NCBI GenBank assembly: GCA_946496575.1
Contig: CAMMHE010000002.1
Coordinates: 20,966 to 84,965 of the forward strand
Direction of reading: 5' to 3'
DNA: 64,000 nucleotides
Origin: an uncultured Clostridium sp.
Lineage (GTDB): Bacteria > Bacillota > Clostridia > TANB77 > CAG-508
The notes beneath the pieces were generated by a model. The model was not told where the DNA came from, made no database searches, and saw nothing but the letters and a program-made list of their open reading frames with translations. Each line of letters begins with the position of its first letter. The stretch's first letter is position 1. Below, piece by piece: positions 22,178-23,313 of this stretch. A program made the position numbers and the translations under genes.

Positions 22178-22790
22178 ATGTTATTATTTCTTCTCCTAAG
22201 TACTGACTCACATGTATTACTATTGGAATTTCTAATTTATAATTTTCACCTTTTGTTCCTATTTTTAAGTCTTCTTCATTGTTTGCTTCATCATCTTTCC
22301 ATTCAATCTCAACTTTAATATTATTTGATTTTCCTTGCTTAATATCTTCTAAAGTTATAATTCCTGTATATGTATTTTCATCAGTTTTTATTAAATCTGT
22401 TTTTTCTTCTGTTTCAGTAATGGATTTTATAGTTATATTTTTATTTGTCAAATTTTCTTGATTTAAGCTTATGTCATATCTAATAGATACATCCGTATTT
22501 TCTGGATTTATTAGTATGTCAAATGTTCCTGTTAATCCTGGTGCTAAATTTCCTTGTTTTACGTGTTCATTATTTTGCACATTTATTTCATTTATAGTAA
22601 ACTCTTTATTTGTTCCATTTGATATGTCTGTATTATTTATTTTTATTTGCCACACACCTTTAACTAAATTGATTGTCCCATCTACTTTGCTTTGAAAAAC
22701 AGCATATATTTGTATAATACAGTAAATTACAAATAGTATTATACAAATATATAATAAAAAATATATCTTTTTATGATTTTTTTTCTGCAT
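22164..22790 (-). CDS. Small secreted TasA-like subunit, paralog of 14647..15243
   Basis: IIQIYAVFQSKVDGTINLVKGVWQIKINN; LAPGLTGTFDILINPENTDVSIRYDI; IKVEIEWKDDE; VIHVSQY. Aligns block by block with the plus-strand paralog. Confidence 0.6.
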   Translation of the reverse strand: MQKKNHKKIYFLLYICIILFVIYCIIQIYAVFQSKVDGTINLVKGVWQIKINNTDISNGTNKEFTINEINVQNNEHVKQGNLAPGLTGTFDILINPENTDVSIRYDISLNQENLTNKNITIKSITETEEKTDLIKTDENTYTGIITLEDIKQGKSNNIKVEIEWKDDEANNEEDLKIGTKGENYKLEIPIVIHVSQYLGEEIITYEQK

Positions 22791-23313
22791 TATTTTCTAC
22801 CTTATCATTTTTTGAATTTCGCATATCAGCAATAACTACTGTTATTTGGTAAAAGAATGCAAGTAATGCTGGTAACACTATTAAGAATAAAAATCCCCAT
22901 TTAGATTCTAATACATTAAGTACAGTTCCAATTCCTGGTATTACTGATACATAATTTTTACTACCAAGAACATATTCACTTGATACTTTATGTTCTCCTT
23001 CAAATGTATATGTTGATTCTGTTTCAGTTATTTTTTCTAAATCTACTACTTCTCCTAGCTTTACTTCTATTTGTCTGCCATATGTATTATAAAAAAATGC
23101 TTTATCTCCAGGTAGAACTTTTTGTGATTTATCTACTATTACTAGATCTCCTTTATTAAAATCTGGAACCATTTCATTATCTGATATTATTACTAATGAA
23201 TAATTTCCGAATTCTGTTACTTTAAATTGATTGTACGATAATAAACATACTGTTATAAATACTGCAATTACTACATAAATTACAAATATGGTATTTAAAA
23301 TTGCTTTTTTCAT
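22771..23313 (-). CDS. S26/SipW-like paralog lacking both the catalytic Ser and His (pseudo-peptidase)
   Basis: Same topology (TM, YSLVIISDNEMVPDFNKGDLVIV, VIPGIGTVLNVLE, C-terminal TM). The SGSMEP box reads DNEMVP, there is no THR box and no GDNN box. Confidence 0.6.
   Translation of the reverse strand: MKKAILNTIFVIYVVIAVFITVCLLSYNQFKVTEFGNYSLVIISDNEMVPDFNKGDLVIVDKSQKVLPGDKAFFYNTYGRQIEVKLGEVVDLEKITETESTYTFEGEHKVSSEYVLGSKNYVSVIPGIGTVLNVLESKWGFLFLIVLPALLAFFYQITVVIADMRNSKNDKVENNAEKKS

Follow-up and report, generated by a model that had tools for sequence, protein, structure and literature searches.

Why would a locus that already encodes active signal peptidases keep, as the first gene of an operon, a copy of the same fold that cannot cut? 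The question is raised by a 64,000-nucleotide stretch of DNA from an uncultured Clostridium sp. (GenBank assembly GCA_946496575.1, contig CAMMHE010000002.1, positions 20,966 to 84,965), hereafter the window. The source genome is 1.41 Mb in size and ~95% complete, and the window has a G+C content of 25.6% and encodes five SipW-family paralogs, named A to E here. A first-pass annotation, made from the letters of the window, described paralog A as a pseudo-peptidase and proposed that it could be a substrate-binding, chaperone or scaffold subunit. The analyses presented here show that this protein, pseudo-SipW A, is a non-catalytic, membrane-embedded descendant of a signal peptidase of the endoplasmic reticulum (ER)/archaeal type (SipW/Sec11, family S26B). 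We think it moderately probable, given its sequence and surroundings, that A acts as a non-cleaving, membrane-embedded chaperone or scaffold for the assembly of TasA-like fibres, with the mechanism inferred.

Homology and topology of pseudo-SipW A

The gene and the parts of its product considered below are as follows (aa, amino acids; TM, transmembrane).

22771-23313, minus strand: pseudo-SipW A, a catalytically dead ER-type signal-peptidase paralog of 180 aa, first gene of the operon
23233-23310, minus strand: TM helix 1, residues 2-27, with its outer end (AVFxTVCLLSYN) among the most conserved parts
23164-23181, minus strand: degenerate nucleophile box DNEMVP, residues 45-50, with E47 in the catalytic Ser column and the Met and Pro of SMxP retained
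23134-23154, minus strand: conserved KGDLVIV strand, residues 54-60, common to active SipW/Sec11 proteins (GDxxxV)
23047-23070, minus strand: IEVKLGEV, residues 82-89, at the site of the (V/I)THR(I/V) His box; the His column has no His in any ortholog
22990-23001, minus strand: EGEH, residues 105-108, at the site of the GDNN box, followed by a deletion of ~7 residues
22828-22944, minus strand: residues 124-162, VIPGIGTVLNVLE (124-136) and then SKWGFLFLIVLPALLAFFYQI, forming a juxtamembrane helix and TM helix 2

Translation of A starts at an ATG codon, with AGGGGGAA a few bases 5' of it. The AlphaFold2 model of A (predicted local distance difference test score, pLDDT, 76) has helices at residues 2-27, 128-136 and 138-179 and a beta domain between the TM helices. 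As expected for SipW, an N-terminal TM anchor is paired with a C-terminal TM helix. The two ends of the protein are charged. The SipW-type topology read from the sequence by the first-pass annotation (N-terminal TM segment, beta domain, C-terminal TM segment) is confirmed by this model. A SipW profile aligns over residues 6-178, and the motifs it quoted (DNEMVP, KGDLVIV and VIPGIGTVLNVLE) are all present.

That profile, NCBIfam SipW NF046067, matches A with an E value of 1.3e-7, and TIGR02228 matches with an E value of 6e-6. Both scores are far below the curated cut-offs (31.4 vs 190 bits and 26.2 vs 51.85 bits, respectively), Pfam S24 is slightly sub-threshold (19.2 vs a cut-off of 23.3), and Pfam, NCBIfam and PADLOC returned no above-threshold family for A or for the small exported subunits of the locus. 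When a profile of 29 A-family members was aligned with a profile of the active paralogs using hhalign, the probability was 97.8% and the E value 8.8e-13. The top matches of the A-family profile among PDB sequences are human Sec11C and Sec11A. Foldseek comparison of the model with the PDB gave human Sec11C as the best match (7p2q_A, probability 1.00, E value 4.6e-4) and Sec11A also with a probability of 1.00, followed by lower matches to the C-terminal domain of lambda cI, Streptococcus pyogenes SipA (4n31), LexA and UmuD', all of the S24/S26 superfamily. A is a true SipW/Sec11 (S26B) homolog and not a chance likeness.

Loss of the catalytic residues

The first-pass annotation stated that DNEMVP stands in place of the nucleophile box SGSMEP and that the His and GDNN boxes are absent, and both statements hold for the window copy. 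The catalytic columns of A were taken from four independent alignments (MAFFT runs on A plus the four other paralogs and on 259 locus paralogs, HMMER against Sec11, and hhalign), and Glu47 falls in the nucleophile Ser column in all four. The His column corresponds to K85, L86 or G87 depending on the aligner, and the sole His of A, H108, is not conserved. Across 81 orthologs, the Ser column holds Glu (29), Asp (14), Lys (14), Ser (9), Thr (5) or Gln (3), with Asn, Ala, Ile or His as further residues, and the His column holds Gly (42), Ala (32), Asp (5) or Ser (2) and never His. A His lies within four columns of the His column in only 4 of the 81 and never alongside a Ser. The Asp column, where the aligners disagree, is Asp (27), Glu (22), Asn (16), Gly (7) or another residue across the family; the window copy has Glu and a shortened loop here. 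Among full-length A representatives (50%-identity clusters), only 3 of 126 have a Ser with a nearby His, and just two of these three look canonical.

The annotation had also allowed for an alternative Ser/His pair in the active site. No Ser/His/Lys pair of this kind is conserved in the 81 orthologs or in 125 representatives reaching down to ~30% identity. There is no conserved His or Lys in the A family, and the conserved polar residues are N28 (122/125), S137 (111/125) and D70 (96/125), of which S137 is at the start of TM helix 2, outside the beta domain. A has lost the Ser-His(-Asp) catalytic residues and therefore cannot cleave.

Purifying selection and a shift in constraint

The 81 orthologs of A form one clade, and the reading frame is intact in all 81 species. 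Pairwise ratios of nonsynonymous to synonymous substitution (dN/dS) are 0.22-0.38 for A, 0.21-0.40 for SipW-B and 0.18-0.28 for SipW-C. Mean identity to the window copy, calculated from the same 67 genomes, is 0.510, 0.506 and 0.519 for A, B and C, respectively; the three clades are each well supported (0.997, 0.987 and 1.0), and the tree distances within them are equal (1.41, 1.42 and 1.37). A is maintained as carefully as the active paralogs, and its most likely task is therefore to hold or position fibre subunits, not to cleave them. With no Ser plus nearby His in any of the 81 orthologs and the gene syntenic and under purifying selection, the description of A as a pseudo-peptidase stands.

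The family is large. It comprises 761 representatives (50%-identity clusters) at E values of 1e-3 or below, 253 of them at 1e-10 or below, and has 548 matches in a 90%-clustered database. Among gut and rumen Bacillota, A occurs in 119 species genomes, and the proteins of the family carry neither a name nor a Pfam or NCBIfam annotation. Some members (P0143, 438 aa; P0132, 394 aa; P0264, 338 aa) have C-terminal extensions of 150-260 residues after TM helix 2.

Constraint in A has left the catalytic boxes and now centres on the TM helix ends. The best-conserved blocks are the outer end of TM helix 1, KGDL(V/I), FFY, and the juxtamembrane helix with TM helix 2 (LESKWGFLFLIVLPALLAF.YQI), with peaks at the two TM ends, LLSYN and ESKWGFLFLIVLP. 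Residues 124-162 are the most conserved block of the family. In SipW-B and SipW-C, in contrast, the catalytic boxes are best conserved and the TM helices only weakly. The concentration of constraint in the TM helices of A points to a membrane-level function of signal-peptidase folds that is separate from cleavage.

Gene order and co-occurrence

The genes and sites around A, listed from its upstream side, are as follows.

23463-24383, plus strand: divergent 306-aa protein without a TM segment, adjoining A in most loci
23348-23376, minus strand: promoter-like site TTGAAA-17-TATATT with a TG extension, a consensus match only, at a frequency not above chance
22164-22790, minus strand: 208-aa exported subunit with signal anchor end IYAVFQS and a predicted, weakly TasA-like jelly roll
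21653-22177, minus strand: SipW paralog B, active by residues (GSMADT, ITHRL, KGDAN), with Ser, His and Asp invariant in 77/77 orthologs
21088-21696, minus strand: 202-aa exported subunit with signal anchor end LAKYES, closing the four-gene cassette A-subunit-B-subunit
20141-21073, minus strand: 310-aa exported subunit (LGRYIT)
19126-20124, minus strand: 332-aa protein without a TM segment or family match
17594-19114, minus strand: 506-aa membrane-anchored McrB-like AAA+ NTPase, very highly conserved
16448-17575, minus strand: 375-aa DUF2357 protein, a partner resembling the McrC N terminus (DUF2357 E value 1.2e-11, above cut-off)
15852-16448, minus strand: SipW paralog C (GSMEP, ITHQV, KGIAN), with Ser and His invariant in 70/70 orthologs
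12607-15898: four further exported subunits of 211 aa (minus), 198 aa (plus), 259 aa (minus) and 330 aa (minus), with anchor ends TFAWF, IFAKY, KIAYE and TYAWF
10793-12358, minus strand: 521-aa K/E-rich protein without a TM segment
2961-10803, minus strand: giant YGGGN-repeat surface protein, two open reading frames (ORFs) here
2352-2948, minus strand: SipW paralog D, active by residues (DSMKP, ITHRI, KGDNN)
1817-2389, minus strand: paralog E, with Ser retained (NSM) and His and Asp lost in this genome

The divergent intergenic region upstream of A, which contains the promoter-like site, is 149 bp long. The A gene overlaps that of the 208-aa subunit by 20 nucleotides, and the latter overlaps SipW-B by 14. 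In ~80 species loci the genes run in the same order: A, the 208-aa subunit, SipW-B, the 202-aa and 310-aa subunits and the 332-aa protein, then the McrB-like NTPase, the DUF2357 protein, SipW-C, the subunits of 211, 198, 259 and 330 aa, the 521-aa protein, the giant repeat protein, and SipW-D and E. A is always the first gene of the cassette A-subunit-active SipW-subunit, consistent with the first-pass placement of A at the head of the operon. The order A, subunit, SipW ... McrB-like, DUF2357 is also retained where A is only 39% and 30% identical.

Co-occurrence was assessed in 251 genomes sampled evenly from the order, with the McrB-like gene called at E values below 1e-190. It is present in 31 genomes, and all 31 have A, so the dead copy is a conserved part of related loci, a point that the annotation had proposed to check. 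Two genomes with two McrB-like copies each carry two copies of A. The locus is patchy (34/251 genomes, 13/39 genera of the order, and only some species within the same genus) and is therefore accessory. The patchiness of this 22-kb island in genomes of ~1.4 Mb suggests gain and loss, or horizontal transfer. In one genome labelled Bacilli, a second, weaker A-like gene lies inside the locus (L079, 8123-8635, plus strand), just before a 310-aa-type subunit.

The statement that three canonical paralogs in the locus keep all of the catalytic boxes is correct only in part: two keep the GDNN box, whereas SipW-C reads KGIAN. Its Asp column is Ile (47), Leu (9), Val (9), Thr (4) or Lys (1), with Asp in 0 of 70 orthologs. 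Given that Asp106 of SipW is reported to be essential, either the Asp of a later QDPE motif may substitute in SipW-C or the clade may work as a Ser-His dyad. The giant YGGGN-repeat protein is encoded by ORFs of 1266 and 1314 aa in the window and by a single ORF of ~2,500 aa in relatives (e.g., L020, 50-7633); the split may reflect a frameshift, a sequencing error or recoding.

Exported subunits, motor and locus class

In all seven small exported proteins (12607-22790), the h-region or signal anchor ends in a motif of the type [YL][AG]x[FY]. The copies are YAVF, LAKY, LGRY, FAWF, FAKY, IAYE and YAWF, and they are conserved across ~60-75 orthologs per subunit. In TasA (PMC10269814), the site cleaved by SipW has an aromatic residue (Phe) at P2'. 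The motif of the seven subunits resembles this site, with a small P1 and an aromatic P2' residue, and is a predicted cleavage site only. The match of TIGR04088 is weak (14.2 bits vs a cut-off of 19). When the 208-aa subunit model (pLDDT 79) was compared with PDB folds, the TasA fibre 8aur_A ranked first, again as a weak match (E value 1.9e-3, TM-score 0.34-0.37), and there are further weak matches to archaeal cannula subunits and pilin-type folds.

The McrB-like family profile matches Escherichia coli McrB (6hz4, 6ut6, 7vsr) with E values of 2e-4 to 4e-4. Hydrophobic segments at the N terminus and a heptad-like stretch are visible in its sequence. This NTPase is far more conserved than the other proteins of the locus, with a mean column identity of 76% among 11 diverse sequences; its extreme N terminus (METFxRFLYEFLSQFF) is nearly invariant and its GTINNDDST motif invariant. 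The DUF2357 domain is also present in distant loci.

The locus matches the CoCoPALM class, which was named in one paragraph by Bell et al. 2024 (PMC11090510), with analysis deferred to a later publication. Shared features are an NTPase of the McrB type, anchored in the membrane and followed by a coiled coil; a McrC-like partner carrying DUF2357; and associated genes of the signal-peptidase family. The definition of the class includes an FtsB-like N-terminal TM/coiled-coil region, and here the TM and heptad-like stretch were judged from sequence alone. Bell et al. did not separate dead from active peptidase paralogs and did not describe their order or the subunits. Our literature search found no later paper analysing CoCoPALM loci and no dead SipW-type paralog. 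The present study is a first dissection of these loci into live and dead peptidase copies and their order, and A provides a defined marker gene for them. The locus takes up ~1.6% of a 1.4-Mb genome.

Origin of the dead copy

Three genomes from another family of the same order have compact loci with only two SipW genes. In the two of these described here, the gene directly upstream of the McrB-like one encodes a SipW of 186 aa with intact catalytic residues (L088, 9595-10155, and L089, 8823-9383, both minus strand). This SipW has the boxes TASMEP, ITHRI and KGDNN and an A-like C terminus (SKVGFFVCIVLP...IYQ), and it is the sister of the A clade (support 0.914). The position of this intact, A-like SipW in the tree and beside the McrB-like gene suggests an active, motor-adjacent SipW as the ancestor of A, with long-branch effects possible in a sequence tree of this kind. 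In this scenario, A would have given up catalysis when B was there as a second active copy, and would have retained a TM-based function.

The E clade is also a sister of the A clade (support 0.90). Only about half of its 14 members keep both Ser and His. Given that this partly dead clade is sister to A, catalysis was seemingly lost repeatedly in this branch.

Proposed role and alternatives

What A retains is a two-helix topology with both termini inside, an extracytoplasmic S24/S26 beta domain, and the boxes x-x-[ML]-x-P and KGDL(V/I)(V/I). We infer from this, and from its genomic position, how it may work in fibre assembly. The two strongly conserved TM ends would hold A in the membrane, where it would bind, but not cut, a TasA-like subunit in the region of its signal anchor and cleavage site ([YL][AG]-x-[FY]). 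The 208-aa subunit, whose gene overlaps A, would be the likeliest partner. A could then pass the subunit to, or place it beside, the McrB/McrC-like membrane ATPase pair and the active SipW whose gene lies two positions downstream. Stated more generally, A would contact a subunit precursor, the active SipW or the motor within the membrane, and orderly assembly of the fibre would require it.

Several observations weigh against this chaperone or scaffold role, or at least against parts of it. The surface of the beta domain of A is less conserved than its TM ends, a pattern expected more of a scaffold working through TM contacts than of a peptide binder with sequence specificity. The model of A is of moderate quality, with a TM-score to Sec11 of 0.45-0.52 at its pLDDT of 76. 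A sequence-profile search of the 208-aa subunit against the PDB gave no match, and the assignment of the subunits as TasA-like, based on a structure model, is weak. Peptide binding in vitro seems not to have been clearly shown for streptococcal SipA, the most similar case (PMC4049620).

A broader version of the scaffold reading seems to us rather improbable. Here A would be a TM adaptor that couples a nuclease-less cytoplasmic AAA+ motor of the McrB/McrC type to extracytoplasmic processing and donor-strand polymerisation of TasA-like subunits. If true, the locus would encode a new fibre-assembly machine of monoderm bacteria, driven by nucleoside triphosphates and built on signal-peptidase paralogs rather than on ushers, sortases or type IV pilus platforms.

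Among the alternatives, the one that survives best, which we would nonetheless call unlikely, is that A is an obligate non-catalytic partner of SipW-B in a heteromeric peptidase. It would contribute TM contacts, membrane thinning or substrate selectivity, and would have no action on the subunits alone. B always follows A at a distance of two genes, with frames overlapping across the intervening subunit gene; A is constrained in its TM ends and the TM helices of B are poorly conserved; and eukaryotic Sec11 functions only inside a multi-subunit TM complex (PDB 7p2p, 7p2q). However, Bacillus subtilis SipW is reported to act by itself on TasA and TapA, SipW-C has no adjacent dead partner, and one active A-like SipW suffices in the compact loci. 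A partner of this kind overlaps with a chaperone or scaffold, and the two are inseparable by sequence alone.

It is quite unlikely that A is a protective decoy that covers the cleavage site of one subunit, such that this subunit retains its signal anchor, stays in the membrane and forms the fibre's base or anchor. A non-catalytic peptidase fold would suit such a role, and seven subunits with similar cleavage motifs face only three or four active peptidases. No sortase domain was found in Pfam scans of 18 locus proteins, and the giant protein has no LPXTG signal at its end; as neither a sortase nor an LPXTG anchor was seen in the locus, another mode of anchoring would be needed. A stoichiometric protector would be costly, however, and constraint in A is mainly in the TM ends and not in a cleft.

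A signalling or regulatory role exerted through the cytoplasmic tail is suggested by the bifunctionality of B. subtilis SipW, which also has a peptidase-independent function requiring its C-terminal 20 residues (PMC8767453), and by the charged tail that follows TM helix 2 in A. We judge this very unlikely because the tail (residues ~163-180) is the least conserved part of A and varies in length.

It is more improbable again that A is a protease with a relocated or different catalytic pair. S137, N28 and D70 are conserved, and a Lys or Arg often lies close to the His column, but S137 is at the start of TM helix 2, the nucleophile column is freely variable, and the family offers no conserved base, so an alternative active site was rejected. 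That A is a decaying pseudogene left by a duplication, as the loss of catalytic residues alone might imply, is practically out of the question given an old monophyletic clade of 761 clusters, a dN/dS of ~0.23, divergence equal to that of the active paralogs and intact frames in 81 species.

Comparison with known systems

B. subtilis SipW, encoded in tapA-sipW-tasA, is the closest named family by sequence and has the same length and topology as A. It is a dedicated peptidase for TasA-type subunits, with an aromatic P2' residue at the cleavage site. Its catalysis requires Ser47, His87 and Asp106 (Tjalsma 2000, as cited in PMC8767453), and all three are absent in A.

Human Sec11A and Sec11C (PDB 7P2P, 7P2Q) are the best matches of A both by structure and by profile against the PDB, and Sec11 also works within a TM assembly. 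Sec11 is the catalytic subunit of that assembly, whereas A is non-catalytic. The first-pass annotation likened A to the non-catalytic subunits of eukaryotic signal peptidase complexes; this comparison is loose, since none of them is a paralog of Sec11.

Dead signal peptidases have one precedent as fibre-assembly factors, namely SipA (LepA, Spy0127) of the S. pyogenes pilus islands (PDB 4N31). According to the report on its structure (PMC4049620), the catalytic Ser and Lys of SipA have given way to Asp and Gly, the peptide-binding cleft is kept, and the protein is essential for pilus polymerisation and believed to bind one of the pilus components at the membrane. On the features given there, A and SipA share the signal-peptidase fold, the replacement of both catalytic residues (in A, Ser by Glu, Asp or Lys and His by Gly or Ala) and a gene inside a surface-fibre cluster, and SipA is among the fold matches of the A model. 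They differ in that SipA is of the P-type (S26A, Ser-Lys), whereas A is of the ER/archaeal type (S26B, Ser-His-Asp) and nested among the Ser-His paralogs of its locus. SipA has one N-terminal anchor, in contrast to the two TM helices that bear most of the constraint in A. SipA also serves covalent pili polymerised by sortase, while the A locus is sortase-free, with TasA-like subunits and a McrBC-like ATPase pair. By analogy, SipA appears to be the closest functional counterpart of A, convergent with it and not homologous to it as a pseudo-enzyme. The A family is an independent second origin of a dead signal peptidase, from the other (ER/archaeal) branch of these enzymes.

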